Positions 12,058 through 50,919 of a DNA stretch of 64,000 nucleotides are shown here, in pieces. Under the pieces are notes generated by a model that did no database searches, was not told the origin of the DNA, and saw only the letters and a list, made by a program, of their open reading frames with translations. The position numbers and the translations under genes are program-made. How positions within the stretch are numbered: the stretch's first letter is position 1; every line of letters begins with the position of its first letter. Location: NCBI GenBank assembly GCA_948329525.1, contig CAOJBM010000001.1:407-64406 (forward strand). The letters run 5' to 3'. This DNA comes from an uncultured Mycoplasmatota bacterium (GTDB lineage: Bacteria > Bacillota_I > Bacilli_A > RF39 > UBA660).

Positions 12058-12957
12058 TTATTCACCATCCACACTTATATTAAGTATTTCTAAAATTCTT
12101 TCTAAGTCTTTTTCTGAATCATAAGGTATTTCAATTTTTTTATTGGTAATCTTTACTCTTGTTCCTATTTTTTCTCGCATTATATTTTCATAAATAGCAA
12201 AGTTCCCACTATTTGATGATATATGTCTAGTAATCTTGTTTCTCTTAAGCTCATCATCTCCACCTGATATTTTTTCAATATCCCGAACTGTTAAGCTTTC
12301 ATCAATAATTCGATTAGCTAGTTCTTCAATTTTTGCTTCATCATCATATTTTGATAGGGCTCTTGCATGACTCATGGAAATTTTATTTTCTTTAACATAG
12401 TCTTTTACTTTTGATGGAAGGTTTAATAAACCTAGTAAGTTTGTAACATAACTTCTACTTTTACCAAATTTTTTAGCTGCCTCTTCTTGCGTCACATTAT
12501 TAGCACTTAATATTTTAGAAAAAGCTTCTGCTTCCTCAATTGGGTTTAAATCTTCTCTTTGAATGTTTTCAATTAAAGCTATTTCCATCATTTCTTCATC
12601 ATCAAATTCACGGACTATAGCAGGAATTGTTTTTAAGCCAGCTAATTTAGATGCTCTTGTTCTTCTCTCACCAGCAATAATGTAGTATCCTTTTATTGTT
12701 TTTTTAACGATAATTGGTTGAACTACACCATGAACTTTAATTGATTCAGCTAATTCTTCTAAAGCTTTATCATCAAATGTTTTTCTTGGCTGATACGGAT
12801 TAGCTTGGATTTCTTCTAAAGATATTTCTTTAATATCTCCAGGTTTTGCTTCTTCGACTATCTCCTTTTCAAAATTATCAAAATCAATTCTTTCATTAGA
12901 AAATAATTGTTCTAAACCTTTTCCTAAGGCCTTTCTTTTAGTTTCCATTTCTTTCAA
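12058..12957 (-). CDS. parB: Chromosome partitioning protein ParB/Spo0J
   Basis: ParB box IIAGERRTRASKLAG and HTH; coupled to parA. Confidence 0.85.
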   Translation of the reverse strand: MKEMETKRKALGKGLEQLFSNERIDFDNFEKEIVEEAKPGDIKEISLEEIQANPYQPRKTFDDKALEELAESIKVHGVVQPIIVKKTIKGYYIIAGERRTRASKLAGLKTIPAIVREFDDEEMMEIALIENIQREDLNPIEEAEAFSKILSANNVTQEEAAKKFGKSRSYVTNLLGLLNLPSKVKDYVKENKISMSHARALSKYDDEAKIEELANRIIDESLTVRDIEKISGGDDELKRNKITRHISSNSGNFAIYENIMREKIGTRVKITNKKIEIPYDSEKDLERILEILNISVDGE

Positions 12958-23540: not shown

Positions 23541-23867
23541 TTAATAAGATAGATAAAATAAAATACTAATTCTTTCTATAGCTGGCATATTCTTATTTGT
23601 TATATATTTTATTTTTGAAGAAAAATCTTTATAAGCTGATAAAATAATTCCAAGATAATATTCTACAAAGTATGAATAGTCATTTTTATTATTATGCCAA
23701 TTTATTGAACTATTTTCTAATGAATCATAATAAGTTTCTGTTGTTTCTTCTATTATTTTTTCAATACTAATATATTTACCAACTATATATCCAGCTTTAT
23801 ATAATAACAATAATGTCAATAATCTACTAATTCTGCCATTTCCATCTGCAAATGATACCTTAGTCAA
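23541..23867 (-). pseudogene. C-terminal fragment of a Fic-family protein, truncated immediately before the active-site motif
   Basis: It begins with (TTG)TKVSFADGNGRISRLL. That is the FxDGNGRxxR core of the Fic HPFx(D/E)GNGRxxR motif without the His-Pro, and there is an in-frame stop two codons upstream. It lies 15 bp from the stop of the serine recombinase gene. Confidence 0.55.
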
Positions 23868-23882
23868 CTTTTACTTTTAATG

Positions 23883-26024
23883 TTAAAATTGGTATCTCCA
23901 TTTAATAGTAATATCTCTATTATCAGTTTCTTTGTTATAATCACCAATATAAATTCTTTCAACAAATTCATTTAATATTTCTCTAGTAACTTCTTTTATT
24001 GAAGTATATTTTTCATATAACTTTCCAACTTCTTCAAAGTTATCTTCTGCTTGATCGTATTCATCTAATTGTTTATTAATAACTTCTAATCTTTGAGATA
24101 GATTACTTTTTTCAATTTTGAAATTTTCTTTAAACAATTTATATTCATCATAGTCTATTATACCAGTTTTTAAATCTTCATACATTCCTTGATAAATATT
24201 ATCTTTTTGAGCAATTTTCTTTTCAATATCTTTTTTTTCAATTCTTAAAGCTTCAACTTGATTATTAGTATCATCTCCAAGAACTTCTTTAATATTAATT
24301 TTATTCATAACAGATAAATCTTTATATTTTTCAATCCTATTATTTATACTTTCACAAATAATATTATCTAAAGCATCAACTCTTACACTTCGTGTATTAT
24401 TACAATCATGATATGGTTTACTCATTTCTGCACATCTAAAATATTCTACATCTTTATCATTTTTTGGAGATGATATTTTCTTAAAATTCTTATGACAACA
24501 ATCACATTCAATCATTCCAGAATACTTATTTTTTACCCCATGTCCTTTACAAGCACGAGCTTTATTTTCAATTACCTCTTGTGCCTTATTCCATGTAGCC
24601 ATATCAATAATTGGTTCATGAGTATTTTTACATACTATCCATTGTTCTTTTGGCAAATAAATAACTTTCTTATTTTTGTAACTTGGTGTTGTTGTTCTAC
24701 TTTGAGCTAAATGACCTATATAAACAACATCATTCAATATTCTTCTAACAGTAGTTCTTCCCCATACATGTTCTTTGCTCTCTTTGTTATATTTTGCATT
24801 TAAACCTTGCGACAACTTATATTCATAAGGACATGGAATATTATGTTCTTTCAAGTAAGTAATAATTTTATAAACTCCATAACCTTCATAAGCATATAAT
24901 TCAAATATCTTCTTTACAACAACACTTGCAACTGGATCTAGTATTAAATGATTTTTGTCATCTGGATCTTTCATATATCCATAAGGTGCAAATGGTCCTG
25001 TAAACTGTCCATTAGCATGTTTATCTTTGAATACATCTCTAATATTTTCAGATAAATCCTCTAAATACCATTCATTAATAAGACCATTTATTTGTCTTGA
25101 TTTTTTATTACCTTTTACTACTGTATCAGCATTATCAACTTTACCAACAAAACGAATCCCCCATTGTGGAAACAATCCATGTATATATTTTTCAACATGC
25201 TCCATATCACGAGTAAATCTAGATTGCATTTTACATAATACAATATCAGTTTTACCAACTTCACAGAATCTTAAACACTTATTATATTCTGGTCTATCAT
25301 TATCAACACCAGAGTAATCTTCATCACAAAATATTGCTACAACAATCCATCTATTAGCTTTAGCATGTTTTAATAACATAGATAATTGATTTTTAATACT
25401 TTCACTTAATTCTTCTGGAGTTTTTTTATCTTTATCTTCTTCTGATAATCTTACATAAAGAATGACATTTTTACCATACCAGTTATATTCAGAATTATAT
25501 ATTTCTCTTACATAAGCAGCTCTTTTTTTAATTTCAAAGCTTGGATCTAAAAATCTTTCATCATTTTTAATATCAAGATTTAATAAATTAATTATACTTG
25601 GAGAAACATATTCCAATTTACATTCATCCATCAAATCTTTAAGTTGTTGATTTCTTCTACTTGCAATTGTATCTTCTGTTTTTCTTTCTGATATAGCTTT
25701 TAACTTAATATTTATTTGATTTAAGTTGCCAATAAAAGTATTAAACTTATCTTTTGCCTCACTAATTATTTCATTGTATGTAGTTAATACAAGACTTACT
25801 GATTTTTCTTTTAACTCTGAAACCATCTTATTAAGGTTGATTCTTTGTATTTCATCTCCAATATAATAACCATCTTTGTATATTCCACAAACATCATATT
25901 TTAATTCATTAGCATAATCTAATAAAGTTGTAGTACGTTTACTTAATACACTTTCAATTTCTTCTGAACTTAATGCTTTATTTTCTTCATCTGTTAATCC
26001 TACATATAATACCACCTTTTCCAT
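23883..26024 (-). CDS. Large serine recombinase (integrase) with a duplicated N-terminal resolvase-like domain
   Basis: Catalytic YVRLSEED motif; recombinase domain HEPIIDMATWNKAQEVIE; CxxC/CxxC zinc-ribbon region; coiled-coil C-terminus. A degenerate upstream copy reads LYVGLTDEEN. ATG with GGTGAT RBS at 26024 is preferred over the ORF-track start at 26078. Confidence 0.85.
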   Translation of the reverse strand: MEKVVLYVGLTDEENKALSSEEIESVLSKRTTTLLDYANELKYDVCGIYKDGYYIGDEIQRINLNKMVSELKEKSVSLVLTTYNEIISEAKDKFNTFIGNLNQINIKLKAISERKTEDTIASRRNQQLKDLMDECKLEYVSPSIINLLNLDIKNDERFLDPSFEIKKRAAYVREIYNSEYNWYGKNVILYVRLSEEDKDKKTPEELSESIKNQLSMLLKHAKANRWIVVAIFCDEDYSGVDNDRPEYNKCLRFCEVGKTDIVLCKMQSRFTRDMEHVEKYIHGLFPQWGIRFVGKVDNADTVVKGNKKSRQINGLINEWYLEDLSENIRDVFKDKHANGQFTGPFAPYGYMKDPDDKNHLILDPVASVVVKKIFELYAYEGYGVYKIITYLKEHNIPCPYEYKLSQGLNAKYNKESKEHVWGRTTVRRILNDVVYIGHLAQSRTTTPSYKNKKVIYLPKEQWIVCKNTHEPIIDMATWNKAQEVIENKARACKGHGVKNKYSGMIECDCCHKNFKKISSPKNDKDVEYFRCAEMSKPYHDCNNTRSVRVDALDNIICESINNRIEKYKDLSVMNKINIKEVLGDDTNNQVEALRIEKKDIEKKIAQKDNIYQGMYEDLKTGIIDYDEYKLFKENFKIEKSNLSQRLEVINKQLDEYDQAEDNFEEVGKLYEKYTSIKEVTREILNEFVERIYIGDYNKETDNRDITIKWRYQF

Positions 26025-26267
26025 TAGTACATCACCATCCTTATATGGCGACATACCATAGCAAAATTGCTTACACATATATTATAACGTAAAAGCTTGT
26101 TTTTTTCAGCCATTATTAGCTTATTTTTGCTAGATATTTCAAAATAACTTTAACCAATTGTTTGTTTACACTTTCTTTTATTTCATTTTCACTTTTATTG
26201 TTTGGTTCTATTTCATAAACCACAAAATTTCCTTTCATTCAACATACCCCCTATTATTCTTTTTTAT

Positions 26268-26873
26268 TTAATAATTTACTTCATCAATTAGTTTTCCTTC
26301 TATAACTATTTGATAACCTTTTTTATTCTGATTACAAGTAATTAAAGTTATATATTTATCATCTTTTAAGTTTATAACTTTAGCTTTACCTATCTTTTCT
26401 ATATCATGTATATTAATAATATTATAATGATATTTAATACCATTAAAATAAACATATACATCATCATTAATTTCTAACTTATATAATTTATTAAAAAAAG
26501 CAATACTACTATTGCCTGAATGTGAATATAAAATGAAATTACCTTTTTCATTTGGATAATTACTACTATTATCTACACTAATAGCATAATTAATTGATTT
26601 AAAGTTTTTTGTACTATCTACTACTCCTCGTTTTAAATTAATTTTAGGAATTTCTAAAACAGCTGTATAAGCAATATTACTATTAGTATTTTGAATATTA
26701 GATAATTCTTGTTCTGAATTGGTTGGTTCATCTATTTCATCTATAACAGAAGTTTCTTCAATATAATTTTTTATATCATCATTATTTTTATATTCCAAAG
26801 ATTTATTATAAGCATAATAAAATGCTAAGACCATTACTCCCACTAAAATAAATAGTTTACCTAATTTTCTCAT
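26268..26873 (-). CDS. Sortase-family transpeptidase (ICE-encoded)
   Basis: Signal/TM anchor, His motif (ILYSHSG), catalytic TLITC motif, 201 aa. Confidence 0.55.
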   Translation of the reverse strand: MRKLGKLFILVGVMVLAFYYAYNKSLEYKNNDDIKNYIEETSVIDEIDEPTNSEQELSNIQNTNSNIAYTAVLEIPKINLKRGVVDSTKNFKSINYAISVDNSSNYPNEKGNFILYSHSGNSSIAFFNKLYKLEINDDVYVYFNGIKYHYNIINIHDIEKIGKAKVINLKDDKYITLITCNQNKKGYQIVIEGKLIDEVNY

Positions 26874-29176
26874 ATTTTTTTCTCCTTTGTATTATCCCAA
26901 ATAGTAATTTTTGTTGTTCCTTTATTTATATTGTTAGATACAGCAAATGTATAATTTGATTTTGTGTAATTTTCAATTGCTTGAATATCACGCTCATTTA
27001 TGACTTTATTGATAAATAAAATATAATTATCATTATTTTTGCTAATCGTTGTATCATAATTAGCAAATATACTATTTTTAAAATTATCTATTATTTCATT
27101 ATCAACTAGTTCATCATCTTCTACTACTTGAGATTGCATACTTTTAGTAGCTTTATTAATTTGTCTTTGAATATTCTGTTGAAATTGTTCTTGCATATTT
27201 TTAGCTACTTGATTCAATGCTTTTTCATTTTTATTTTGATAATTACTCTTTAGTTCTTCAACTGTATAATAATTACTAGTAATTCTTTTTAAAACTTTAG
27301 TTTCTCTATCTATTCCATTTAAATTTTTATAACTTGGAAACAAATCACTATACATATAAGTATCCCTAAAAATTGGATTACTAATTGTTGGAAAAATAAT
27401 TGTTTTATACTTTAAGGCAATTATTTCTGTTGCTGTTAATAATTCTTTTCCCATAAGTGAAATTGTTTTATTTGCTCCAACTTTCATTGGATCTGTACTT
27501 CTACTCATTGAATTTGTTTCAACAGTAGCACGACCTAATTTTTTTGAGATAATTTCTGCTGTCTCAACTGTATTTGTTTTTAGATAAACTAAAGCACAGT
27601 TATCTTGAATAATACTAGCAACATCTTTCCCATATACTTGTGAAAGTTGCCCATAACTTTGAATAAAAAATTGAAATCTCATTCGCCTGCTTCTAGCTAC
27701 TGAGACTAGTGTTTCTATCGAGTTTAAAGGAGGACAATTTGCGAATTCATCAAGAATCCACTCTACCATAACTGGTAGTTGTCCTTTGTTTTCTGGTAAG
27801 TTAGCAAATCTAGTTAAGTCTTTTGTTAACATTCCTATAATAATAGTAACTAATTGAAAGTATGCTTTGTCCTCATCTGGTACAATTATATATAAAACTG
27901 TTGGTTTACTTCCTAAATCAGTAAAATTAAATTCATTTGAACTTGTAACATTTTCTACATTTAAATCATCAAATATTGCCATTTTCTCTGCAAATACTGC
28001 TGTAATTGATTTATATGTATTTTCTGCAGCTGATAAAATTGAAGTTAAATGATCTTTAGATAAACTTCCATACTTACGACTATTAACATTTTTTTGCAAG
28101 AAAGTTTGATTTTCTTTAATTAATGAAGAGTTTTGAAACTTTTTAATACTGGAAATATTTATCTTATTTTCTGGAATTAGTCCTAATTGATAATCTTCTA
28201 AAAATACTCCTACAATACCTATAAATAATTGTTTCGCACTATTTATCCAAAATTTATCATTTGTATCTTTATCTACAAAAATTAAATCTGCAAGTGAGAT
28301 AACTAATCTATTTGTTTCTGCTTGATGTTTAGAACTCATGTTTTGATATTCTCTAATCATTAACATAAGTTCATCATTTGATTTAGTAAATAAATAATCT
28401 TTTAAAGATATATTATCTTCTAATTTTTCTTGTAGTATACCTTTTAGATACATCTTTTTATCACTAATTAAATCATTCAAATATTTTTGATTATTTATAA
28501 TAATATCAATTAGATATTCTTCTAGCACATACTTATCTTTAATCTTATTTAAATATTTCTCATCACTAATATTATCTAACTTAATTCTATTAAATTTAAT
28601 AAAATGAGCAAAAAGAAAAAGCATTGCATCATTATATTTACAATACTCTTTCCACTCATTTATAATTGGTTGCATTATATTTATTTTATTAGATTTATTT
28701 GGATTTCTAAAATCTATGGTTACAACATCATAGCCATTGTCTTTAAATACCTTACTAGTCGCATTAAAGATTTCTGCTTTTGGATCTGTAACCACTACAC
28801 TATGTTTTTCTTTAGCAGTTGCAAACATAAAACATTCTGGTATTACAACTGTTACTGACTTACCACTCCCAGTTGAACCAATGAGCAAATAATGTGGACT
28901 TTTATTATCAAAATACACACTTTCAAATTTATTATTTTTCTTTTCATACCAAACAGGAAAACCAACACTATTTATATTATTTATATCTTCTTTTACGAAG
29001 TTTCTTTCAATTTCTTTCATATCTGCAAATTTACTAGATCCATGTTCATTTTTATTTTCCAATTTTCTTTTATTTAATCTTGGCTCTAAAAATAAAATAA
29101 AAAATATAGCAAAAATCACTAATAATAATATAAATAATTCAATAGAAGTCATTGGAGCAAATTTTACACTATCCAT
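26870..29176 (-). CDS. FtsK/SpoIIIE-family conjugative coupling protein / DNA translocase (TcpA/Orf21-like)
   Basis: N-terminal TM helix, Walker A LLIGSTGSGKS, 768 aa. Confidence 0.75.
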   Translation of the reverse strand: MDSVKFAPMTSIELFILLLVIFAIFFILFLEPRLNKRKLENKNEHGSSKFADMKEIERNFVKEDINNINSVGFPVWYEKKNNKFESVYFDNKSPHYLLIGSTGSGKSVTVVIPECFMFATAKEKHSVVVTDPKAEIFNATSKVFKDNGYDVVTIDFRNPNKSNKINIMQPIINEWKEYCKYNDAMLFLFAHFIKFNRIKLDNISDEKYLNKIKDKYVLEEYLIDIIINNQKYLNDLISDKKMYLKGILQEKLEDNISLKDYLFTKSNDELMLMIREYQNMSSKHQAETNRLVISLADLIFVDKDTNDKFWINSAKQLFIGIVGVFLEDYQLGLIPENKINISSIKKFQNSSLIKENQTFLQKNVNSRKYGSLSKDHLTSILSAAENTYKSITAVFAEKMAIFDDLNVENVTSSNEFNFTDLGSKPTVLYIIVPDEDKAYFQLVTIIIGMLTKDLTRFANLPENKGQLPVMVEWILDEFANCPPLNSIETLVSVARSRRMRFQFFIQSYGQLSQVYGKDVASIIQDNCALVYLKTNTVETAEIISKKLGRATVETNSMSRSTDPMKVGANKTISLMGKELLTATEIIALKYKTIIFPTISNPIFRDTYMYSDLFPSYKNLNGIDRETKVLKRITSNYYTVEELKSNYQNKNEKALNQVAKNMQEQFQQNIQRQINKATKSMQSQVVEDDELVDNEIIDNFKNSIFANYDTTISKNNDNYILFINKVINERDIQAIENYTKSNYTFAVSNNINKGTTKITIWDNTKEKKI

Positions 29177-32934: not shown

Positions 32935-34383
32935 TTAAAAATAAATATTATTGTTATATTCATTATCTGATAACATCTCATAAAATTGTTTAGCAGCATC
33001 ATCTGAATCTTTTGATAATCTTCTTAAAGCATTAGACATTTTATCATGATTCTTATATCCACCATATATAAAATAATTTTCTAAAATTTTTAATCTAAAC
33101 TTTTTTCTATTATTTTGATAATATTTATTATTTTTGTCTTTATATATAATAATTGCTATTTCTCCAATAACATCTTCAAGTGATATTTTACTGGATTTCT
33201 TATTGGTTTTTCCTTTATTGTAGTCATAATTATATAAAGCATGATTAACTATTGCATTTAAAATATAATTATCTGATTTTTCTAATTTTTCTTGAATCAT
33301 TTTATTATCAAAAGCACTTTCAAATCCAGCATTAGAAATATTATTTCTTCTATCTATATCTAAAAATATCTCATTTAATTTTTCTATACTTTGTTGTATA
33401 TCTTTTTTAGATAGTTTGATTTCATCATTAGAATCAAATAATTTATTTTTTATTTCTTTAGTGATTGTTCTTATTTCATTACCAATTTCATTTTTAGGTA
33501 AAGAACCATATTTAATGTATTTTTTATTTGTATCTCTTACTTGATTTATTAAATATCCAAGCTTTACAATATCCTCTTCTAAATCTAAATCAGAAATATT
33601 TTTTAAAGTAAAATTTCTATCCTTAGGATTAAAATAATTCTGTAAATGTTCAATATCTTCATTTATTTTTATTAAAGCAGGCCTATATAATTTATTTCTT
33701 TCTATAGATAATGAAACTTGCCTTTTCATAAAATTATTTTCATTATCATCTAACTTTAATTTATACCTATGTCCTAGTTTATTATTTTTCAGTTTATAGC
33801 ATTTATTTTTTTCAATCCATGCTATATGAAAGTGATAATTATTTTCTCTATCACAATGAAGTGATACAATCCATTCTAGATTTTTTTCTGGATCTTGATA
33901 ACCTGAATACTTTAAAAATTTAGGCATTATTTTAGTGGCCACTTCTTTTTGTAAATCTTTTATATTAATATTTTCATCTACATAATCTTGATATAAAGAT
34001 AACACTGCAAGATTAACATTACTATTTTCTAAATAATCAGACCATCTGTTTTGCATATTTTCTACCATATCATCTTTTATAAAACTTCCATCTTTTAGCA
34101 TTGCCATTTCTTCTCTTCGCATTTTATTTCTTATCATTATATCATCTGATTTTTTATCACCCATAAAATAACCTAACATAGAAGAATGAGCTTTCTTTTC
34201 ATCTCTACTATAATCATAAAAACCACAAATATATTTTTTTAATTCTTCACTATAATGTTCTTTATCTTTACACTGAATATAATACCACTCATCATTTTTA
34301 TTTTTTTTATAAATTCGTAAATTATTAGAAGGATTATTAACTGCATAATATGGATGATCTATAAATACAACTTTAGAATCCAT
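32935..34383 (-). CDS. MobV/Mob_Pre-family conjugative relaxase
   Basis: Three-His motif LHCDRENNYHFHIAWIEKN aligns with MobM HLDESTPHMHMGVVPFEN (HxDE..PHxH). 482 aa with a coiled-coil C-terminal half like MobM. Confidence 0.65.
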   Translation of the reverse strand: MDSKVVFIDHPYYAVNNPSNNLRIYKKNKNDEWYYIQCKDKEHYSEELKKYICGFYDYSRDEKKAHSSMLGYFMGDKKSDDIMIRNKMRREEMAMLKDGSFIKDDMVENMQNRWSDYLENSNVNLAVLSLYQDYVDENINIKDLQKEVATKIMPKFLKYSGYQDPEKNLEWIVSLHCDRENNYHFHIAWIEKNKCYKLKNNKLGHRYKLKLDDNENNFMKRQVSLSIERNKLYRPALIKINEDIEHLQNYFNPKDRNFTLKNISDLDLEEDIVKLGYLINQVRDTNKKYIKYGSLPKNEIGNEIRTITKEIKNKLFDSNDEIKLSKKDIQQSIEKLNEIFLDIDRRNNISNAGFESAFDNKMIQEKLEKSDNYILNAIVNHALYNYDYNKGKTNKKSSKISLEDVIGEIAIIIYKDKNNKYYQNNRKKFRLKILENYFIYGGYKNHDKMSNALRRLSKDSDDAAKQFYEMLSDNEYNNNIYF

Positions 34384-35175: not shown

Positions 35176-35637
35176 TTAACTATTTTCTTTCCTTTTTCTA
35201 TATTCTAATTCGTTCACTATTTCTTTATCATCATTTTTATATTTTTCATCAATTTCAGTTAGTTCTTTTCTATATTCTTCATTTAATCTTTTAACTTCTG
35301 CAACAACTAGTTTTAATTTTTTTTCACGATTTAATCCATCAATAATTTTCTTATCAGTTAAATTTTTCATAGAAGTTTCATTATCGTAATCATAAAAAAT
35401 ATAATTGAATTTTCCTATCTTATTATCATAAACCATTGTAATATTTTTGGCAGATGTTTTAAATTCTAAATTAGAAAATTTTATTTTATCTATACTCTCA
35501 TTTTTAAAATAATAGACATCAAATTCAACATCATAATGTTGTTTTATGAGTTCCAAACTTTGTTTATATTTTAACTTTGCTTTATCTTTTTCTACGATTT
35601 TTTTCATCAAATTATCTCTATATAGCTCATCATTCAT
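35176..35637 (-). CDS. Hypothetical coiled-coil protein
   Basis: 153 aa. Confidence 0.35.
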   Translation of the reverse strand: MNDELYRDNLMKKIVEKDKAKLKYKQSLELIKQHYDVEFDVYYFKNESIDKIKFSNLEFKTSAKNITMVYDNKIGKFNYIFYDYDNETSMKNLTDKKIIDGLNREKKLKLVVAEVKRLNEEYRKELTEIDEKYKNDDKEIVNELEYRKRKENS

Positions 35638-36602
35638 AGTTCAATTTCACTATTCCTTTCTTCCTCTCTTTTAGAAATTATAATCTTCAAATTATCATTT
35701 ACATACTTGTAATTTTTCATTAACGAATCCTTATTTTTTATAAGTGCCTCATTTAAATCTTTTACTCCAGTACCAGAAATTAATGTTAAAGAAAAAGAAC
35801 TAACCTTTAATTTTTCTAGTTCTTCTTTCACAATATCTTGATACATAGCTCCAGTTTTATCATTATCAAATGCTAAAACAAAAGTACCATTATATTTATT
35901 TTCTTCTACTATTTTTAATAATCTTTTATAGTTAGGTAAACCATTGAGTGCTACTGTTTTCACATCAGAATCAATCGTTTCTAAAGATAAAGAATCTATA
36001 ATACTTTCTGTAATATAGATTAATTTATTATCACTATTAATTAAATTTTCATTCCATAAATAGCTTGTCCCTTTTGATTTTATTTTTCCATCTCCAGTAA
36101 CACTTCTAGCAAAATAACAATTTTTATTAATTGGAAAAACCACCATTTCTCTTTTTTCATCATATCCAACATTATACTTTTTTAATAGTTCTGGATTGAT
36201 TTTTCTTTCATTTAAATAATCTGTTTTATTAATTTTGCTAATACACTTCTGAAAATAATTTGTAAAATCTATCACATTATTGTCAGCTTCTACAACATCA
36301 AATTTTTTAAAAACTATCTCTGATATATTTGGATATAACTTATCAGCTATCTCCAATTTTTCTTTAAATGATTCCACTCCATAATCAAGTCCAATTAAAT
36401 CAAAAATATCATAGTGAGTACCACAAGAAAAACAATTACATATATTTCCTTTTGCATAATAACTCATACTTGGATGTCGATCTTCATGATCTGGATTTAA
36501 ACAAGTAAATGGTTGATTGATATTTATATTATGTTTAATCATTAAATAATCTGCTAACATTGGTTTAAAATTATCAATACTTTTTCTATCTATGAAAGAC
36601 AC
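35634..36602 (-). CDS. DNA primase (CHC2 zinc finger + Toprim), conjugative-element type
   Basis: CHC2 finger FTCLNPDHEDRHPSMSYYAKGNICNCFSCGTHYDIFDL; Toprim-like acidic motifs (IYITESIIDSLSL, AFDNDKTG). Confidence 0.7.
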   Translation of the reverse strand: MSFIDRKSIDNFKPMLADYLMIKHNININQPFTCLNPDHEDRHPSMSYYAKGNICNCFSCGTHYDIFDLIGLDYGVESFKEKLEIADKLYPNISEIVFKKFDVVEADNNVIDFTNYFQKCISKINKTDYLNERKINPELLKKYNVGYDEKREMVVFPINKNCYFARSVTGDGKIKSKGTSYLWNENLINSDNKLIYITESIIDSLSLETIDSDVKTVALNGLPNYKRLLKIVEENKYNGTFVLAFDNDKTGAMYQDIVKEELEKLKVSSFSLTLISGTGVKDLNEALIKNKDSLMKNYKYVNDNLKIIISKREEERNSEIEL

Positions 36603-37546
36603 TCTTCTACCTCTTTTTCTTTAAAATTGGTATCTTCATAAATAGTATTTTTTCCATAAGTTATTTTTATAATATCTTCATAATGAAGATCATTCCATCT
36701 ACCAAATGTTTCTTCAAATAAGTTTCTATCAGCTAATTTTTCAATATTATAAGTTGATAGATAGGAAGAATTATAATTATGTATAAGAGCATCTGCATTA
36801 TATTTAAATGTTTGCTCTGTTCCATCTTTATTGATAGTTAAATTTACTGTAACACAATTATTATCTTTTACAGAAGTAATTATATTTTTAATTTTATGGT
36901 AAGGATGATCTACATTATCTTCAATAGACTTCAATTGTTTTCTTTTTTCTTCTGTAATAGCAAGTCCTTTTAATATACTTGTCATATTATCTAAAATAAA
37001 ATCTCTAGCTTCTTCTTCTAAAAAAGATTCTTTATCAGTTAAATAATCTAATATATTTTGAGACTTTTCTGTAGAATATTTACGATATGAATCTTCTAAG
37101 GTATTAGATAATTTACCATTCATAAATTCACTAATTACATCACTATCAGTTATTTCTTCTGCTATTTCAACTTCACTAATATCAAAAACATCTTCTTTAC
37201 CATTATCAATTACTTCTTTAATTTTATCATTTACATCTGTATTAATCATTTTATATAAATCATCAGCATTTATATATTCTTTATTGTTGTAATCCCAATT
37301 AAGCAGATTATATCTAATGCTATATTCTATATCAAACAGTTTATCATTTTCTTTATCATATATTCCACTGTATTTAAATGGTGAATGTAAATCAAATAGT
37401 TTGCCACTATAACTCTCTAAAGCATACAAAATATCTAATTTATCATTGTAGCGAACTTTATTAACCATTACTTTTGAATTATTTCCATAATTAAATGTTT
37501 TGGAATTACTACTACTTCTTAAAAAATTAAAAAACTCTTGTTCCAA
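36590..37546 (-). CDS. Hypothetical protein (318 aa)
   Basis: ORF overlapping the primase start. Confidence 0.35.
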   Translation of the reverse strand: MEQEFFNFLRSSSNSKTFNYGNNSKVMVNKVRYNDKLDILYALESYSGKLFDLHSPFKYSGIYDKENDKLFDIEYSIRYNLLNWDYNNKEYINADDLYKMINTDVNDKIKEVIDNGKEDVFDISEVEIAEEITDSDVISEFMNGKLSNTLEDSYRKYSTEKSQNILDYLTDKESFLEEEARDFILDNMTSILKGLAITEEKRKQLKSIEDNVDHPYHKIKNIITSVKDNNCVTVNLTINKDGTEQTFKYNADALIHNYNSSYLSTYNIEKLADRNLFEETFGRWNDLHYEDIIKITYGKNTIYEDTNFKEKEVEECLS

Positions 37547-40035: not shown

Positions 40036-41043
40036 TCAGTTTCCCTCATACTGTGTAAAATCTATATAAGCAATTGCATCTAGCAAATTGCCATCTTTAT
40101 CTTTTAATCCTAAATGCAAATGAGGACCAGTAGAAGTTCCTGTAGTAGAAGTTCTACCTAATAAATCCCCTTTTTTAACCATAGAACCCCTTTTAATTCC
40201 AAAAGGTTGACTGTTAAATTGTAAATGCCAATACATAGCTGTTAAACCATTATTGCAAGTAACCATCATATAATTACCAGTTGAATTACCAGATTCTTTA
40301 AATGGTAAATCATTTGCTTGTGTATTAGTTACATTAGAAACTATTCCATCACACATACTATAAAAGTTTGTACCTGTTGGTACTGCTAAATCCCAACCAG
40401 AATGGAAATTTGTACTTGCTTGTGCTGCCTCTGATATATTTCCTAAATCAACATTTCTATGTTCAAATACAATAGATGTAACTGTAAAATTAGTTTTAAG
40501 TGGAAAAGCGTAAGGCAATGGATAATATACTTCATCATAATCATTACTTTCTGTTATATCTTTACCATCTACATTACATAAATCAATTACATCAATAGCA
40601 ACACCATTTGCATTTACTCCACTTTCAATATTAAAAGTTGGAATAGATGGATCACTCTTTAAATTTTTACAAACTGTTTTAATAGGTATCATTTGTTTTT
40701 CTTCTGCATTAACATTATCCAAATATGCCTTATCCCATAATTCATTGCTTAAATTAGATGTATCTAATACATTATTTGTTCTTTGAAGATAAAACACCAT
40801 TCTTTCCAATGGAACATAACCTTTAGTTAACAAATATTTATTTAATAATAATCTATATCTTTCAGCATATAATTGACTATTTATTACCTTAGAATTTGCT
40901 CTCATTTGATTTGCCTGTTCATTAATGTATGCTTCACCTACTTTATAGCCACATACTGCTATAACTACGATCATAATAAGTGCTACTAAAAATCCTACAA
41001 CTAAAGTAATCAGAAATGCTTTTATTTTTAATAATTTTCCCAT
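40036..41043 (-). CDS. M23-family peptidoglycan endopeptidase (conjugation cell-wall hydrolase)
   Basis: N-terminal TM anchor; HSGWDLAVPTGT (HxxxD) and GPHLHLG (HxH) metal-binding motifs. Confidence 0.8.
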   Translation of the reverse strand: MGKLLKIKAFLITLVVGFLVALIMIVVIAVCGYKVGEAYINEQANQMRANSKVINSQLYAERYRLLLNKYLLTKGYVPLERMVFYLQRTNNVLDTSNLSNELWDKAYLDNVNAEEKQMIPIKTVCKNLKSDPSIPTFNIESGVNANGVAIDVIDLCNVDGKDITESNDYDEVYYPLPYAFPLKTNFTVTSIVFEHRNVDLGNISEAAQASTNFHSGWDLAVPTGTNFYSMCDGIVSNVTNTQANDLPFKESGNSTGNYMMVTCNNGLTAMYWHLQFNSQPFGIKRGSMVKKGDLLGRTSTTGTSTGPHLHLGLKDKDGNLLDAIAYIDFTQYEGN

Positions 41044-43367
41044 TATTCTTCTCTACTTGCAGATGGAAAATCTTCTGATTCACCCATATAATAAAGTTGA
41101 AGTGGTGTTGCAAAAACATTGATTCTAAGTCTATTTTTATTAGTTATATTAACTAAAAATTGTCCTTGCCCACATCTACTTAAAAATGATTTTTGAGTTT
41201 CTGTTAAAGGTGTATTTGCATATATCTTCTCAATAGCTTGTATATCATTATCTTTTAACATACCAGTAATCTGATACTGACAATTTCCAAATAAACTTGA
41301 AGCATGTCTTAAAACACCTGCTGAACTTGTTAAGTCAGATGGTTGTTGTGTTGCCACTACTATACCTGCATTATATTTTCTCAATCTACGACTCATTTGC
41401 CCAAAATATTTTAATAATGTTGGATTATCTTCATCTATGAAATAATGAAATTCATCTACAACAATAAGCATATTTTGTTTTTTATTTTTCTTATCATTTT
41501 TCTTTTTATTATCTACAATCTCATTACTTAGATAAGTAAGTAAATTAATCATTTGAGTATTAATTAATCTTCTACTTGAATTAAATAGTAATTCTTGCAA
41601 ATTAAAAACGACTAGATTATTACTTAAATCTATAGTCGTTATACCATTATAAAGATTTCCATCTTGCCCTGTAACCATTCTTTTAAGAAGAACTTCTATA
41701 TTAACTAAAATTCTTTCTAATTCCTTTGTTTTAGTATTTCTTTGTTGTTCTAAAAGAAAGGCATATAAATCAGAAAAGATCGGATAATCTTTTGCGTTCA
41801 TATTTTCAAATTCTTCTAATGTAGTTTTTTTAGTGATTCCTCTACTATTATAAAATTTTTCTACTATATCAAGTAAAACTACTAATTCTTTTTCTGATAT
41901 ATCTTCAAAAGCTGTTATAAAGAAATTTTCTAGGAAACCTAAATGTTTTCCTAAAATAGATGTTTCTCCATCATCATCAGTTGAAACATATCTAATTTGA
42001 AGTGGATTAATTAAACTCTTACTAGAGAGATCTATGTATTCTCCACCACATCTATTAGTTAATTTTTCTAGTTCATTTTCAATATCGAATAAAAATAACT
42101 TAGTACCCCTAGCAAATTCATTAGTAATTAAAAGTTTAAGTAAAAAACTTTTACCTGAACCAGTTGTACCTATAACACTCATATTATGACCTGTTCTATT
42201 TTTGGTTAAAGCAAACTGATCGAAGAAAGTTGGTAAACCATAATTAGAATCTTCTCCAATAAGCCATCCAGCAGAATCATTATGATAATTTTCAGTAAAG
42301 AAAAATGCTGATGCTAAAGTAGATGTTGGTAAGTACATTGCATAATCTGGCAAACCTTTATCAGTTAATTCAAATCCTTGCCATGCAGCCATTTGTCTTA
42401 AATTAGGTATATCAACTTTTATCTGATACAATTCTGCATTTGTTTTTATCTCTTTTAATATCTCCTCCCTTTGCTTCTTTGTTCCAGAAATAGCAAGAAT
42501 AATAGATACTTCTTTTACCTTTTCATCATTTGCAGATATTTGTTCTATTAATAATTTATAGTTATTCATAAGTGATTGCATTTCTGTTACATCACTTAAA
42601 TTTTTAGATGAGTTAAAGTCTGCCAAAACAGCTTTAAAACTTGCATTCAAAACATTTAAAAGTTTTGATTGTTCTATTGTATCTTTTATTGTTACACTAG
42701 CTTTTACATTAGGTAAAATAATAATCCTATCTAAAAAGCCATGTTCAATAAATAATGGATAGTTTTTAATACTAACCATTTGAATTTCTTCATTATCTAC
42801 CTTTAGGTATGAAGGCATTTCTGATATTCTAAGTGGTGATAATAAATCTACAAAATCATAATACATTATTTGATCTAAATTTACATTTGCATAATATAAA
42901 TTTGCAAATACTTTTATTAACCATTTTTTATTATCTACTAACTCAATATCAAGTTTTGGAGTAATCGCATCACAAGTTCTTTCAAAATCTTCTTTTGCCT
43001 TATCAAGTGCTTCTTTATTTTTAACAATGATGGCAAAATAATAAGAACTAGCAGAAGTCATATTTTCTTCTTCAATCATACTAATAAAATTATGATTGTT
43101 AATTAGCAAGTTTTTTCTAACTTCATTATTAGAATTTTCTTCAATCAATTTTTCATAATTTTCTTTATTAATATTAAGATTTATCTTTTCATCAAATTTA
43201 TATGCTTTTATTACAAAAGGCAATCTATATAATTTTGATAATGTATGAAAAAATATCTTCTGTTCACTATCATTTGTGAGTGATAAATCAATTGGACTTA
43301 CCTTATAAAGTAAAGCTACTTGATCTGATTTTAATCTAATTACTCCATTATCACTAATTTCTTTCAC
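41043..43367 (-). CDS. VirB4-family type IV secretion ATPase
   Basis: Walker A GTTGSGKSF, Walker B IVVDEFHYF, 774 aa. Confidence 0.8.
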   Translation of the reverse strand: MKEISDNGVIRLKSDQVALLYKVSPIDLSLTNDSEQKIFFHTLSKLYRLPFVIKAYKFDEKINLNINKENYEKLIEENSNNEVRKNLLINNHNFISMIEEENMTSASSYYFAIIVKNKEALDKAKEDFERTCDAITPKLDIELVDNKKWLIKVFANLYYANVNLDQIMYYDFVDLLSPLRISEMPSYLKVDNEEIQMVSIKNYPLFIEHGFLDRIIILPNVKASVTIKDTIEQSKLLNVLNASFKAVLADFNSSKNLSDVTEMQSLMNNYKLLIEQISANDEKVKEVSIILAISGTKKQREEILKEIKTNAELYQIKVDIPNLRQMAAWQGFELTDKGLPDYAMYLPTSTLASAFFFTENYHNDSAGWLIGEDSNYGLPTFFDQFALTKNRTGHNMSVIGTTGSGKSFLLKLLITNEFARGTKLFLFDIENELEKLTNRCGGEYIDLSSKSLINPLQIRYVSTDDDGETSILGKHLGFLENFFITAFEDISEKELVVLLDIVEKFYNSRGITKKTTLEEFENMNAKDYPIFSDLYAFLLEQQRNTKTKELERILVNIEVLLKRMVTGQDGNLYNGITTIDLSNNLVVFNLQELLFNSSRRLINTQMINLLTYLSNEIVDNKKKNDKKNKKQNMLIVVDEFHYFIDEDNPTLLKYFGQMSRRLRKYNAGIVVATQQPSDLTSSAGVLRHASSLFGNCQYQITGMLKDNDIQAIEKIYANTPLTETQKSFLSRCGQGQFLVNITNKNRLRINVFATPLQLYYMGESEDFPSASREE

Positions 43368-43835: not shown

Positions 43836-45500
43836 TTAAATTCTATCTGATTCACTTCCATAGTCTCTTATCTTAGGTCTGGAATGATAACGAGAACTAC
43901 TTGGATTTCCAATATTTTTAATACTATTAAATGCTCCACCAAAGCCATTTCTAATATTATTGATTCCTTCTTGTGCAAGTGAAACTCCACCTCTTACATA
44001 ATCAACATTATATTTATCGTTTGAAAAATCCCATTTATTTGCAGCATCTTGAACTTTGCTTTCTCCACGAGATTCAAGCATTCTTCCATAAGCACGTGCA
44101 ATTGGATTTCCACTTTGTTGTAGATCTGCACCTTTCATCATTTGACCTAAACCTTTGCCAACTTTTTCATTCATTCGTTTTGATATACCAGCATTCATAT
44201 TTGGATGAATACTTGCTATACCATGATACATTCCCCTTGCTGTTTGCCCAGCTCCTTTAGCAAGCTGTCCAATTCCTTTTCCTGCTTTTGCCATACCTTT
44301 TGCAGTAGAAACTCCAGCTCCAATTGCCCCAATTCCAAGACCAGTAGCTGTTGCAATTCCACCACCTAAGCCACGCATAGCCATCATCATATCACGACCA
44401 CTATTTGCAGAAACATTTTCACCAATAAATCTATTAAGTGAAGTACAGCCAGTCATAAGCATCATTGCACAACCTAAATATAAAACAGATTGTGCTACAA
44501 CTTTCGTAAAGTAATTTAATCCATTAATATCTGCACTATTTTGAATTGCATTAAACATAATAGAAGTTAATCCAATTAAAAGCATCATTGCCCCAGCTTG
44601 TAATACGAGCGAAGCCAGTTGCTGATATAATGCTGATCTTTGTTCTTTTCTTCCAACAGATGTTGCAATTACTAGTGGAGATATAACCATTAAAAATGCG
44701 AGTTCTAATTGCCTTCTACCAAGCATCAGCACTGCAAATCCAACTGAAAATAAAAAGACAGCTCCAATTACAATTCCAAATAAAAAGTTATAATTGAAAG
44801 CATAATCTTCACTATCATTCCAAATTCCCGGTTTATATATTCCACATCTATAAGAAAATGCACCACTATCCGAGACATCACTTGCTGTAATAGTCTCATT
44901 TCTAATTAAAGTTTCAAAATCTTTCATTGTTTTTGCAGATGATGTATCTGCATATCCTTGCAATTTATCCTGCAAGCCCTTAACATTTTTACTATCTACT
45001 GAATCTCCTCCGCTTACTTTATAGCAAGATTCATTAAGCGAAAGATAAGCTGTTTTCATCTTATCTCCTATCGTAGAATTTTTTGTATTAAAATTATTGT
45101 AAATAGCATTTGATAAATTTACTCCTATATTTATAGTAGTATTAAATATCAGAAATACTGAAAATATTAAAAATCCACATTTAATAATTTCCTTTACTAA
45201 TTCAAATAATGGTTGATCATTGCTATCAGCATCTAATATTCTAAAGGTTAATTTCCAGACAGAAAATAAAAATAGAACTGCAAATGCCAATATAAAAAAT
45301 GCGTTAAATATCTTGGTGAAAGGGGAATTATCAATATTTTTAAGCATTTGTATAAAATTAAGACTATTTATACTATGTGCTACATCATATAAAACATCTA
45401 TTGTTTTAAATATAATATTAACAATTCCTATTCCAAGACCTCTTAATATATCTAGTACACTATATTTAATATCACTTGCTATACTTAAAGTATAAATCAT
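43836..45500 (-). CDS. VirB6-like (TcpH/Orf15-like) polytopic membrane protein with a Gly-rich C-terminal repeat region
   Basis: About 6 TM helices and GLGGGIATATGLGIGAIGAGVSTAKGMAKAGKGIGQLAKGAG repeats; follows VirB4. Confidence 0.55.
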   Translation of the reverse strand: MIYTLSIASDIKYSVLDILRGLGIGIVNIIFKTIDVLYDVAHSINSLNFIQMLKNIDNSPFTKIFNAFFILAFAVLFLFSVWKLTFRILDADSNDQPLFELVKEIIKCGFLIFSVFLIFNTTINIGVNLSNAIYNNFNTKNSTIGDKMKTAYLSLNESCYKVSGGDSVDSKNVKGLQDKLQGYADTSSAKTMKDFETLIRNETITASDVSDSGAFSYRCGIYKPGIWNDSEDYAFNYNFLFGIVIGAVFLFSVGFAVLMLGRRQLELAFLMVISPLVIATSVGRKEQRSALYQQLASLVLQAGAMMLLIGLTSIMFNAIQNSADINGLNYFTKVVAQSVLYLGCAMMLMTGCTSLNRFIGENVSANSGRDMMMAMRGLGGGIATATGLGIGAIGAGVSTAKGMAKAGKGIGQLAKGAGQTARGMYHGIASIHPNMNAGISKRMNEKVGKGLGQMMKGADLQQSGNPIARAYGRMLESRGESKVQDAANKWDFSNDKYNVDYVRGGVSLAQEGINNIRNGFGGAFNSIKNIGNPSSSRYHSRPKIRDYGSESDRI

Positions 45501-46947: not shown

Positions 46948-49731
46948 TTATTTCTTATTTTTCTTTTTACTTGAAATAATTATTAATCCACTACCTAGAA
47001 GAACAATAACTCCAGCAATTACATTAACATAACTATTTGCTCCAGTATTTGGAACTTCAATTTCTTTTAATTTATTAACTAAAGTATGTTGAATTAATTC
47101 TCCATCTTCTGTTATATCAAAATAAACTTTTTCATCTGAAAGTTCATAATCTTCTAATGTAGAAATTTCTTGTAAATAGTAAGATCCATATTCAATTTCA
47201 ACCTCAATGTCTCCATTTTCATCAGTAACACCAGAATATACTAAATTTCCTTCTAAGTCATAGATTCCAATTGTAACTCCAGCTAATGGATTATTAGCTT
47301 CATCAACTTTATGAATTTTTACAGTAGATGTAATTTTTTCATTTGTCATGTTAGCTTTAATAATTTCTCCATTTTCTTTAATTTCAAAGAAAACCTCTTC
47401 ATCACTTAGTTTATAACCAGTTGCTGCTTCTGTTTCAATAATTACAAATTTTCCAACAAATAAATCAGGAATTTTAATTTTACCTTCGCTATTAGTTATC
47501 CCTGTAAAGATTAATTCTCTTTCATTAGTATCTTCATTTATATAAAAAATTTCAACTTTAGTATCAGGTATCTCTTTACCACTTGTAAGATCAGTTTTAC
47601 TAAAATTTAATTCTCCTTTTGGAAGATAATTATCAATTTTTTTATTTTCAATAATAACTTCTGTATATTGATTTTTATAAACTAATTCTATTTCATAGAT
47701 AGTTTCATCAACTAAATTCCCATTACTAGAAGAAATTTCTTGAATTGTATATTTTCCAAGTGGAAGCCCTTCAATACTAGCAAAACCATTTTCATCAGTT
47801 TTTATTGTTCCAACTAAATCACCTTTACTATAGTATTTATAACCATTAATGATAATATTTTCGTTTGCCCTAATTTCAAATGTAGCACCTTCTAAATCAA
47901 TTTTTATATATTTATAAGTGCCATCTTCTATTTTTATTTCTTCACCTTTTTTATTAATAATAATTTGCCCTTTAGCTTGATGATTTTTAAATTTAACTTC
48001 AAGAACTGGTCCTAATTTCTCATCATTAACAATAGGTGTATTATCTCCAATAGTAAATTTTAAACCTTCTTTATTCCATAAATAGCCATCAACAACTTGA
48101 TCTAGTTCTTCTAATACATAATTTCCTGACAATAATTCAAATGGTGTATATAAAATCCCATTTTCATCAGTTTCAAAAACACTAATAGTTTCTACTGTAG
48201 GATATGTAATTGTTTGTTCTACATATTCACCTGTATCTATATTTTTAATTTTAAATTTAATTCCTTTTACTGGAATAGTTAAACCTGTTTCTGCATCTAC
48301 TTTTACTACTTTTAATTTTGCAGTAATTTCATCATTTGCAATTAACTTATATAATGGTTGATCTGTATTTTCATTAATTGTAATTTCAAAATCTTCTACT
48401 TTTTCAAAATTTGTAGTAGAAGTCATCTGTTTTACAATGTATGTGCCATAAGGTAATTTTACACTCGCATAGCCTCTTGAGTCTGTAGTTATGCTTGTAT
48501 ATTTTTCATTTTTTGATTTTAAAATAATATCAAAAGTAACATTTGGTTCTCCAGTAATAAATCCTGTTTTATCTTGAGCATATACTTTAAAGAAAGTAAC
48601 ATCTCTTTCAATCACTTTTTCTTGTACTGGTATAAGTGGTTCTAAATTTTCTTTTGTAATATCAAAATAATATTTATTTGTATCCAGCTCATATCCTTTA
48701 CTTGGTGTTTTTTCTTGAAGAAAAAATCTACCTAAGCTTGGTAAATATCCACTTTTTGCATATCCATTTTCATCTGTTACGATTTCTGTTACATAAGAAC
48801 CATCTTCTCTATATACACCATAAACTGCACCTTTTAAGGTTGCATCTCCTTGTGGTTTAGATAATCCTGTATCACGATCCACTTTGTTAATAGCAATTTT
48901 CCCACCAACTATTTTAATATTAATATTCGTGTCTATTGGATCATAACTACCAGCTTGTACAACATCTTGTGTACCTGGTTTTACATAAACAATTGTTGGA
49001 TGTGAATATTTAACATCTCTTTTTGTTAAAGAGATTGTAGTATTACCTACTGCGTTTGCAGTTAAATATAAATCATTACCACTTTTGTTTGCACTAATGA
49101 ATGAATTACTAGACACCGCATATTTAGATAAAACTCCACTATTATCTGTAAGTTTTAAGGTATTGCCAATAACCATTTCATAATTTGTTGCTCCAAAGTT
49201 TGGAGTCGCATAATGTTTATTTAACAAATCTTCCATTTCAGCCATTTCACTTGTATATTTTGTAATTCTATTTCCATTCAAACTATCAGCAAAGTAAATA
49301 TCATACCCATGTGGTACAGTTTGCCAAATCATGAATTGAGTAACACTATACCATTTTAAATCATTATGATTTACTTCACTATCACTATAACCATATCCAT
49401 AATAAGCAAGAAGTTGAATTCTTCTCCATTGTGATTGTGTCATATTTGCAACATAAGATTGATCATAATCTTGCCCATCATAGGTTTGTGAACTATCTAA
49501 TGGTGTTCCCGGCTCTATACAATAAACAAATTGATTATCACTTTTTCTTGCAATAACAGCAAGTTGCTGATATTTAGTATTTCCTCCCTTTTCTTTATTG
49601 ACAAAAGTGTTAGGAATCCATTGATACTTATCATTAAATTGAGCAGTATATGTTTGAGCTTGTACATTAGTTTTAGGACATACTGCTAACATAATTAATA
49701 AAAATAATAAATATTTTAATTTCCCTTTCAT
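46948..49731 (-). CDS. Cell-wall-anchored surface adhesin with repeated CnaB-type (isopeptide/prealbumin-like) domains and a VPNTG sorting signal
   Basis: Signal peptide MKGKLKYLLFLLIMLAVCPKTNVQA. Several CnaB-like repeats (GAVYGVYREDGSY..TDENGYA, GIYDLEGNLVYSGVTDENGD). C-terminal VPNTG, then a hydrophobic helix and KKKNKK. Confidence 0.75.
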   Translation of the reverse strand: MKGKLKYLLFLLIMLAVCPKTNVQAQTYTAQFNDKYQWIPNTFVNKEKGGNTKYQQLAVIARKSDNQFVYCIEPGTPLDSSQTYDGQDYDQSYVANMTQSQWRRIQLLAYYGYGYSDSEVNHNDLKWYSVTQFMIWQTVPHGYDIYFADSLNGNRITKYTSEMAEMEDLLNKHYATPNFGATNYEMVIGNTLKLTDNSGVLSKYAVSSNSFISANKSGNDLYLTANAVGNTTISLTKRDVKYSHPTIVYVKPGTQDVVQAGSYDPIDTNINIKIVGGKIAINKVDRDTGLSKPQGDATLKGAVYGVYREDGSYVTEIVTDENGYAKSGYLPSLGRFFLQEKTPSKGYELDTNKYYFDITKENLEPLIPVQEKVIERDVTFFKVYAQDKTGFITGEPNVTFDIILKSKNEKYTSITTDSRGYASVKLPYGTYIVKQMTSTTNFEKVEDFEITINENTDQPLYKLIANDEITAKLKVVKVDAETGLTIPVKGIKFKIKNIDTGEYVEQTITYPTVETISVFETDENGILYTPFELLSGNYVLEELDQVVDGYLWNKEGLKFTIGDNTPIVNDEKLGPVLEVKFKNHQAKGQIIINKKGEEIKIEDGTYKYIKIDLEGATFEIRANENIIINGYKYYSKGDLVGTIKTDENGFASIEGLPLGKYTIQEISSSNGNLVDETIYEIELVYKNQYTEVIIENKKIDNYLPKGELNFSKTDLTSGKEIPDTKVEIFYINEDTNERELIFTGITNSEGKIKIPDLFVGKFVIIETEAATGYKLSDEEVFFEIKENGEIIKANMTNEKITSTVKIHKVDEANNPLAGVTIGIYDLEGNLVYSGVTDENGDIEVEIEYGSYYLQEISTLEDYELSDEKVYFDITEDGELIQHTLVNKLKEIEVPNTGANSYVNVIAGVIVLLGSGLIIISSKKKNKK

Positions 49732-50408: not shown

Positions 50409-50469
50409 AGAAAACTCCTCCTCATTTATTACTATTATTATACTGTAGTTTTCTTAAAATGTCAGCCCT

Positions 50470-50724: not shown

Positions 50725-50919
50725 CCCCCTTATAATAAAAAACAGCTTTTTTTATGGAGAGCTGTAACTCCAATAAATTATTTTTCTTCTAGTTCATATT
50801 GTTCTTCGATTCTTGAACATCTACTTGATACTTTGCAAGCAGACCACAAAAAAAGTAATAGAATCATAACTATTACTAAAATCAATAAAAGCATAAAATT
50901 CCTCCCATAAAAAAAATAA

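Follow-up and report, generated by a model that had tools for sequence, protein, structure and literature searches.

The 64,000-nucleotide stretch of DNA analysed here (the window; contig CAOJBM010000001.1 of assembly GCA_948329525.1) comes from an uncultured Mycoplasmatota bacterium and carries, at 23541-26078, a large serine recombinase gene immediately beside a truncated fic gene. Our analyses indicated that this segment is very probably the recombinase-proximal junction between the chromosome and an integrative and conjugative element (ICE), whose large serine recombinase would have placed it in the part of a fic gene that codes for the catalytic motif. The same high confidence covers, as part of one joint explanation, an element of about 41.0 kb that runs from 23847 to beyond 64000, its length being counted without an insertion sequence (IS) that it contains.

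The recombinase gene (23883-26078, minus strand, 731 aa) has its stop codon 15 bp (23868-23882) before the TTG of a Fic-like open reading frame (ORF) of 108 aa (23541-23867, minus strand). The latter reads (L)TKVSFADGNGRISRLL, its opening also being given as LTKVSFADGNGRISRLL, and is in one frame with the recombinase ORF, from which it is separated by three stop codons (...RYQF-stop-H-stop-K-stop-KLTKVSFADGNGR). These coordinates and stops bore out the layout given in the initial annotation, a recombinase ending 15 bp from a TTG-started Fic-like ORF with an in-frame stop just upstream. Alone, the 108-aa ORF matched the Pfam Fic profile at no more than its final 17 positions (77-93 of 93) with 18.7 bits, below the cut-off of 24 bits, and of the full HPFx[D/E]GNGRxxR motif of the Fic domain it retains DGNGRISR only. 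A 135-aa protein from other assemblies (P0002), which is 98% identical to the fragment and reads ...FLSIHPFNDGNGRISR, passes the same cut-off at 39.5 bits; because of this match, the Fic identity of the fragment can be regarded as certain on sequence grounds despite its own sub-threshold score.

Evidence for an insertion came from seven metagenome contigs (L001-L007), found by exact look-up of the 135-aa protein and a 168-aa variant, that have the same yitT-tilS-ftsH neighbours as the window and no recombinase; exact look-up of the YitT protein gave no record. These contigs were 97-100% identical to the window up to 23846 and then diverged completely. The break in identity fell at exactly 23846/23847 in all seven, which are independent of one another, and is not due to chance. 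The empty contigs read ...TCTATTCATCCTTTTAAT GA TGGAAATGGCAGA and encode FLSIHPFN-DGNGRISR without interruption. Their codons across the break are TCT ATT CAT CCT TTT AAT GAT GGA AAT GGC AGA, those of the window are ...GTA TCA TTT GCA GAT GGA AAT GGC AGA, and the last bases common to both are the GA of the Asp codon in HPFxDGNGR. Since element-free contigs of the same organism carry HPFN-DGNGR uninterrupted, 23846/23847 is a true insertion junction. The initial annotation had left it open whether an attL/attR junction had arisen here by insertion or by deletion; the uninterrupted motif beside yitT-tilS-ftsH in the empty contigs decided for the former. In addition, one sample (ERZ13410410) contained both alleles of the window's site, empty (L003) and occupied (L046), which we counted as a sign of mobility.

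The 108-aa ORF is a composite of host and element DNA. From DGNGRISR to its stop codon (23541-23846, minus strand; the B' arm) it is the host-derived 3' part of a fic gene, with 100% identity to five of the element-free contigs (L001-L005) up to 23846. Its TTG and first seven codons (LTKVSFA) are provided by the element terminus (23847-23867, the P' arm), which reads TTGACTAAGGTATCATTTGCA on the minus strand. That the ORF might instead be a genuine small Fic-like gene, or one borne by the element, rather than one piece of a split host gene, is suggested by its TTG start and open frame and by similar "MTKVSFADGNGR..." proteins called in other assemblies (P0004, P0005, P0008). We give this idea practically no credence: L001-L007, which lack the element, hold the whole sequence starting at DGNGR, the part that moves with the element is limited to the first seven codons, the same 21 bases stand before 13 different and unrelated fic 3' halves, and the ORF combines its low Pfam score with the lack of the catalytic His and a frameshift at its 3' end. 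An intact standalone copy of the 108-aa ORF in element-free relatives, which the initial annotation had named as evidence against a junction, was looked for, and the related standalone ORF proved to be the 135-aa form in which the empty site is uninterrupted, so that this check did not refute the junction.

The split gene was in decay before the element arrived. The uninterrupted allele (P0002) holds the full motif but is 5'-truncated, a stop codon preceding HPF by about 46 codons, and a frameshift sets its 3' end apart from that of longer homologues (P0003). Because the empty allele already has both defects, the element landed in a fic pseudogene that still kept the motif-coding DNA; the earlier proposal of insertion into a fic gene held for the site, and the local gene was by then already a remnant. 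Upstream of it, the element-free locus (L001) carries a 451-aa gene, a 187-aa gene, helix-turn-helix (HTH) genes, prfB and gmk. As the initial annotation had stated, the window lacks the 5' part of fic: no match was obtained by blastn with the empty-site contig (L001:1-5087) as query, and the 23-mer that precedes the junction at the empty site had no counterpart there even with 3 mismatches allowed. Just upstream of the 5'-truncated remnant, at about 4730-4900 of L001, there is a 20-nt inverted repeat (ATTCCCCATATTGAAGAATAT / ATATTCTTCAATATGGGGAAT) with arms about 115 bp apart, which may be the scar of a small mobile element tied to the older fic truncation.

The position of the break recurred in other fic genes. 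Five different fic 3' halves were seen beside the exact 731-aa recombinase protein. The terminal 17-mer, searched for in a large metagenome collection, gave 39 matches, nine of them further, real junctions of related elements (one, L053, labelled human gut) and the remainder mostly chance. The occupants of these sites were the same element at 99.6-100% identity or relatives having its end in common. Altogether there were at least 13 distinct 3' (B') arms, reading DGNGR, EGNGR, DVNGR or DINGR, and, besides the empty site, nine distinct 5' (B) arms. The far end of the element followed eight distinct fic 5' halves ending IHP[F/Y]x (e.g., ...FVYIHPYF, ...FEKIHPFG, ...FERIHPFI and ...LVKIHPFV). At these sites the break was always at the GA that opens the Asp or Glu codon, and the orientation of the element relative to fic was constant, as expected of a non-palindromic core dinucleotide. 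When 5' and 3' flanks from the same samples were rejoined, the resulting Fic domains scored 54, 42.5 and 86.8 bits, all above the Pfam cut-off. Among species-representative genomes the far terminus was found in two only, both mouse-gut metagenome-assembled genomes (MAGs) labelled "uncultured Bacilli bacterium".

The GA at 23845-23846 (minus strand), bases 1-2 of the Asp codon, is the sole sequence common to the break of all 5' junctions, all 3' junctions and the empty site, and is the probable crossover dinucleotide. The far terminus of the element reads GA-TGAGAATGATACCTTAGTCAA and mirrors the near terminus, TTGACTAAGGTATCATTTGCA-GA, as an inverted repeat. Joining the two gave a reconstructed attP, TTGACTAAGGTATCATTTGCA-GA-TGAGAATGATACCTTAGTCAA (also GGTATCATTTGCAGATGAGAATGATACC), in which 13 of 15 positions are symmetric about the GA axis. 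The attB consensus, ATTCATCCnTTTnnn-GA-TGGnAATGGnAGAAT, encodes I-H-P-F-x-D-G-N-G-R, and in each of four complete attB sites dyad symmetry was at its maximum at the GA axis, with 8-10 of 15 positions. About other axes attP reached at most 7/15, and the next-best attB value was 8/15 in one site, the others staying at 7 or below. This symmetry reflects the codons themselves, those for Pro-Phe (CCnTTT) and Asn-Gly (AATGG) being near reverse complements placed symmetrically about the GA. We regard the symmetry of the target as a plausible contributor to recognition, not as proof of it.

The recombinase is of the large serine type with a DUF4368 (TndX-like) architecture. Its Resolvase catalytic domain (residues 205-358) scored 84.8 bits in Pfam and includes the YVRLSEED motif with the nucleophilic serine; it is followed by the Recombinase domain (PF07508, residues 384-505, 77.4 bits), a zinc ribbon (PF13408, Zn_ribbon_recom, residues 520-578, 26.3 bits), both above their cut-offs, and DUF4368 (PF14287, residues 670-728, 39.3 bits against a cut-off of 25). 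The N-terminal ~185 aa (within residues 1-200, window 25478-26078) resemble the protein's own catalytic domain (BLASTP E = 1e-8) and match Pfam Resolvase weakly. This extra domain has neither the active-site Arg nor the Ser (YVGLT vs YVRLS), and it is a degenerate copy of the catalytic domain; it is kept in metagenome relatives (L058, L082, L086). Members of the recombinase cluster are 713-731 aa long, and since the shorter ones have 713 aa, the true start is likely the Met at 26024, which would give a protein of that length. Just upstream of the gene, a 40-aa ORF (26116-26238, minus strand) with no family match was called in every recovered copy of the element.

Beyond this ORF the window continues with a conjugation and maintenance module (26268-51447, minus strand), identified by Pfam and NCBIfam matches; contigs from many samples are collinear with it at 98-100% identity. 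The type IV secretion and conjugation genes expected of an ICE are represented by a VirB4-like ATPase (41043-43367; TraG P-loop/AAA_10) and a VirD4/TraG-type type IV coupling protein (26870-29176; PF02534, T4SS-DNA_transf, 195.5 bits). The module also contains a primase-like gene (35634-36602), a pLS20_p028-like membrane protein of the conjugation membrane protein families (43836-45500), an LPXTG SpaA/thioester adhesin (46948-49731) and a 175-aa sigma-70-like regulator (50920-51447), together with a sortase, an N6-methylase fragment, an M23 peptidase, a pilin-like gene of type IV secretion systems and SSB. To its right lie, by Pfam, genes for a GFO/IDH/MocA-type oxidoreductase, a Nudix hydrolase and a LysR regulator (51786-55221, minus strand). 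The segment 55373-62866 follows, with a DUF2201 protein, a 130-aa ORF, a 642-aa ORF (57422-59350), a 162-aa ORF, the reverse transcriptase (59440-60504) and Avd-like gene (60844-61425) of a diversity-generating retroelement (DGR), and two divergent HTH regulators (62197-62460 and 62603-62866). The last feature is an IS1182-family insertion sequence (62874-64000, minus strand; NCBIfam transpos_IS1182, 276.6 bits), whose transposase ORF is open to base 64000 and which is probably the reason that the assembly, and with it the window, stops there.

The oxidoreductase, Nudix, LysR and DGR genes and the IS could be chromosomal if the element were a short one of about 28 kb (23847 to ~51.7 kb) with the fic 5' half deleted at its boundary. 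Conjugation genes are absent to the right of 51447, and the intergenic region 51448-51785 resembled a possible boundary. However, when contigs were retrieved by exact match to the 175-aa regulator or the oxidoreductase, the LysR-Nudix-oxidoreductase genes were joined to the regulator and conjugation genes in every recovered contig (dozens, from many samples), though the DNA past LysR differed among contigs (the DGR, an AAA/ankyrin pair or a DUF6829 gene). Moreover, other copies of the element run on to an inverted-repeat terminus abutting fic 5' halves, and the neighbours at the element-free locus are quite different. A short element is contradicted by these findings and very improbable. A boundary at 50350-51850 (~51.5 kb) had been suspected at one stage and was dropped, given the linkage of the oxidoreductase genes to conjugation genes in other contigs.

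For the longer element, a walk from the 162-aa ORF reached the far end in other copies: the DGR is followed by the two HTH genes, a C5-methylase gene, a metallophosphoesterase gene and a common end base. Comparison of the window with reference copies that reach the far terminus showed 99.6-100% identity ending at 62873, where the IS sits (62873/62874) between the HTH gene and the C5-methylase gene of the element. The reference copies have about 2.0 kb of element DNA past this point, at 7166-9163 in L029, from which the length of ~41.0 kb was derived. The initial annotation had offered, as its second alternative, that the other end lay past 64 kb and that the DGR, the oxidoreductase-Nudix-LysR genes and the IS were cargo, and this is supported by the gene linkage and by the far termini of the other copies. 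No convincing inverted copy of the left terminus was found within the window, as the far end lies outside it. Of the defined ends and empty site that characterize an ICE, the near end and the empty site were observed at this locus, and the far end in other copies only.

The DGR in the element looks active, as judged from the distribution of its mismatches. A 100-bp template repeat (TR) lies between the Avd-like and reverse transcriptase genes, the two repeats being at 59037-59136 and 60671-60770 (minus strand), and all ten mismatches between the template and the variable repeat (VR) are at template adenines. The variable copy corresponds to about codons 72-105 of the 642-aa ORF, unusually near the N terminus. 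The far end of the element also has a shorter variant, since in MAG MGBC119269 (L040, 6042-8000) the reverse transcriptase gene is ~1.5 kb from the far terminus, compared with ~4.4 kb in L029. Two contigs of 10819 bp from two samples (L025 and L026) have a 55-bp terminal overlap and carry a gene for a 606-aa DDE transposase with the DGR, LysR, Nudix and oxidoreductase genes in circularly permuted order, which suggests a circular or tandem translocatable unit of this gene block or an assembly artefact. In sample ERZ13410481 the coverage of an element-internal contig was 25.7 and that of a chromosomal flank contig 6.5 (L008, L013), suggesting that a genome holds multiple copies of the element or that the sample includes multiple hosts.

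The targeting of fic DNA has a precedent in TndX, the large serine recombinase of Tn5397 from Clostridioides difficile, which directs insertion into Fic-domain-coding DNA; a cloned Fic-coding sequence suffices to attract Tn5397 insertion in B. subtilis, and a central GA has been reported for TndX, according to a review of C. difficile mobile elements (PMC4430133). Like Tn5397, the element described here is conjugative in its gene content, would be integrated and excised by a large serine recombinase, prefers Fic-coding DNA and has a GA core, and the use of other sites by Tn5397 when its preferred one is absent may be compared with a non-fic insertion of the present element (L090, described below). 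The backbone of the present element, with its PF02534 VirD4/TraG coupling protein, M23 peptidase, pLS20_p028-like protein and sortase/LPXTG adhesin pair, is unlike that of Tn5397 and Tn916. Tn916-type modules have an FtsK-type coupling protein, a Rep_trans relaxase and an NlpC/P60 hydrolase. In the present element there was no Rep_trans match, its hydrolase is M23 and its coupling protein VirD4/TraG, and no match to tet(M) was found among the ORFs scanned. It further differs from Tn5397 in its size of ~41 kb, in carrying a DGR and the LysR-Nudix-oxidoreductase set, and in its host, an uncultured low-GC gut bacterium. TndX has ~530 aa; the present recombinase, at 713-731 aa, differs from it in the extra, degenerate catalytic-like domain at the N terminus.

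TndX-like enzymes are included in a DUF4368-rich clade of large serine recombinases that a large survey found to be multi-targeting (Durrant et al. 2022, PMC10083194). The present enzyme resembles this clade in having DUF4368, in that one recombinase cluster is found in many target genes, and in a target motif far longer than the core dinucleotide. Unlike those of the clade, its targets are not a loose AT-rich motif but one conserved protein-motif-coding sequence in paralogous or orthologous fic genes, so it would appear to hit many genes and yet stay sequence-specific. Another gene-interrupting serine-recombinase element is the skin element of B. subtilis, which lies in sigK and is served by SpoIVCA. 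The two are alike in that a large serine recombinase element lies within a coding sequence in fixed orientation and that excision would restore the frame; they differ in that there is no sign here of a regulated, host-beneficial excision and that the interrupted gene in the window was already a pseudogene remnant.

Several observations weigh against the insertion of an intact ICE by a fic-specific recombinase. The symmetry of attB is only partial, and the DNA is AT-rich (the DNA of the window's host has ~25% G+C). The circular form was not encountered: attP was absent from the 39 metagenome matches to the terminal 17-mer, and the attP 28-mer had no match in viral contigs. The likeness of the recombinase to TndX is one of DUF4368 architecture, several targets, GA core and fic site. 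In addition, a 5' junction in one contig (L090, ~12120-12630) falls within an ORF that has a resolvase domain, next to prophage genes, and is flanked by CAACCACTTGCA before the GA, and one junction protein (P0141) has a flank that is not fic-like (...AVIILPIT followed by DENDTLVK). These look like secondary sites having only the inner core bases in common with the fic sites, and they show that the preference for fic is strong, not absolute. Searches of Pfam, NCBIfam and PDB sequences recognised no relaxase among the ORFs, several of which, including 32935-34383 and 36590-37546, lack annotation, and self-transmissibility of the element is only putative.

The far junction of this copy was likewise not seen. 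The 33-mer expected at the window site's far junction had 0 matches in the metagenome collection, the predicted 57-aa chimeric ORF of this junction, used as a protein query, brought up other sites and not that of the window, and a walk past the IS, by look-up of the HTH gene and search with the 451-aa neighbour, reached neither an IS-bearing copy nor a far junction. This copy could therefore be truncated: a deletion after insertion, mediated by the IS or otherwise, may have removed the far end together with the fic 5' piece and left a degraded, immobile copy, in which case the deletion alternative of the initial annotation would be right for this genome. Consistent with this are the IS1182-family element, which splits the ICE at 62873/62874 and extends past the end of the window, the lack of a site-specific far junction in every collection searched, and the absence from the window of the DNA found upstream at the empty site (the 451-aa, 187-aa and HTH genes, prfB and gmk). 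Nevertheless, the 39 kb of the element within the window are collinear with, and 99.6-100% identical to, copies with intact far ends, which argues for a recent insertion. A short junction missing from fragmented metagenome assemblies is also weak negative evidence, and insertion sequences commonly break assemblies. We consider a truncated copy unlikely, and an ICE that continues past the IS to a far terminus the much better account of the window.

Under this account, and in the manner known for large serine recombinases, dimers of the DUF4368-type recombinase would bind the attP of the element and a chromosomal attB in the fic motif DNA, whose partial dyad would suit a dimeric enzyme. A two-base staggered cut at the central GA of both sites, rotation of subunits with their half-sites, and religation would follow. 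The non-palindromic GA would permit a single orientation, with the recombinase gene beside the DGNGR side and in the same direction as fic. Insertion would split fic into a 5' part, extended by a 23-codon tail (DENDTLVKNATYPQNAYKLRFSN), and a 3' part preceded by the element-encoded LTKVSFA, as in the 108-aa ORF; the 3' piece would lack the catalytic His, and HPFxDGNGR would be re-formed by conservative excision. Here the target was the fic pseudogene remnant, and the IS1182-family insertion was gained later. The far junction of this copy would then be expected after ~2 kb of element DNA past the IS. If the copy is intact, it should read ...CATCCTTTTAAT-GA-TGAGAATGATACC, or, in the direction of fic, ...CTTTCTATTCATCCTTTTAAT-GA-TGAGAATGATACCTTAGTCAA, and the predicted protein there would be ...IHPFN followed by GATGAGAATG, joined to the 451-aa gene.

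For TndX, insertion into fic DNA at a GA core has been described before, and for that reason current understanding is not overturned by these findings; what is new is a different element, from uncultured gut bacteria. Their main value lies in how widely fic genes are targeted, in the att sites that could be reconstructed and in the unusual architecture of the recombinase. For genome-engineering interest in multi-targeting large serine recombinases, they provide an attP of ~50 bp, rebuilt from the two ends, and an attB consensus of 30 bp. In annotation work, a truncated fic ORF opening at DGNGR just downstream of a DUF4368 recombinase gene marks one boundary of such an element, and a fic 5' half ending HPFx and continuing as DENDTLVK... 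marks the opposite one. In the window itself, ~40 kb can be assigned to one element, the active-looking DGR included.

More tentatively, we speculate that the Fic motif codons (CCnTTT nnn GA TGG nAATGG) form an intrinsic partial palindrome that might serve as a near-universal landing pad for a clade of mouse and human gut conjugative elements whose recombinases carry a catalytically dead resolvase copy. Many Fic proteins being toxins, insertion and excision might then act as a reversible on/off switch for Fic, a strategy of host range or host manipulation broader than the two C. difficile sites of Tn5397. Independently of this speculation, the choice of conserved catalytic-motif DNA as a target would offer a ready-made site in almost any Fic-bearing genome, with several sites per genome. 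Such targeting would help to account for the spread of these elements across gut Firmicutes, and would inactivate Fic enzymes on entry.

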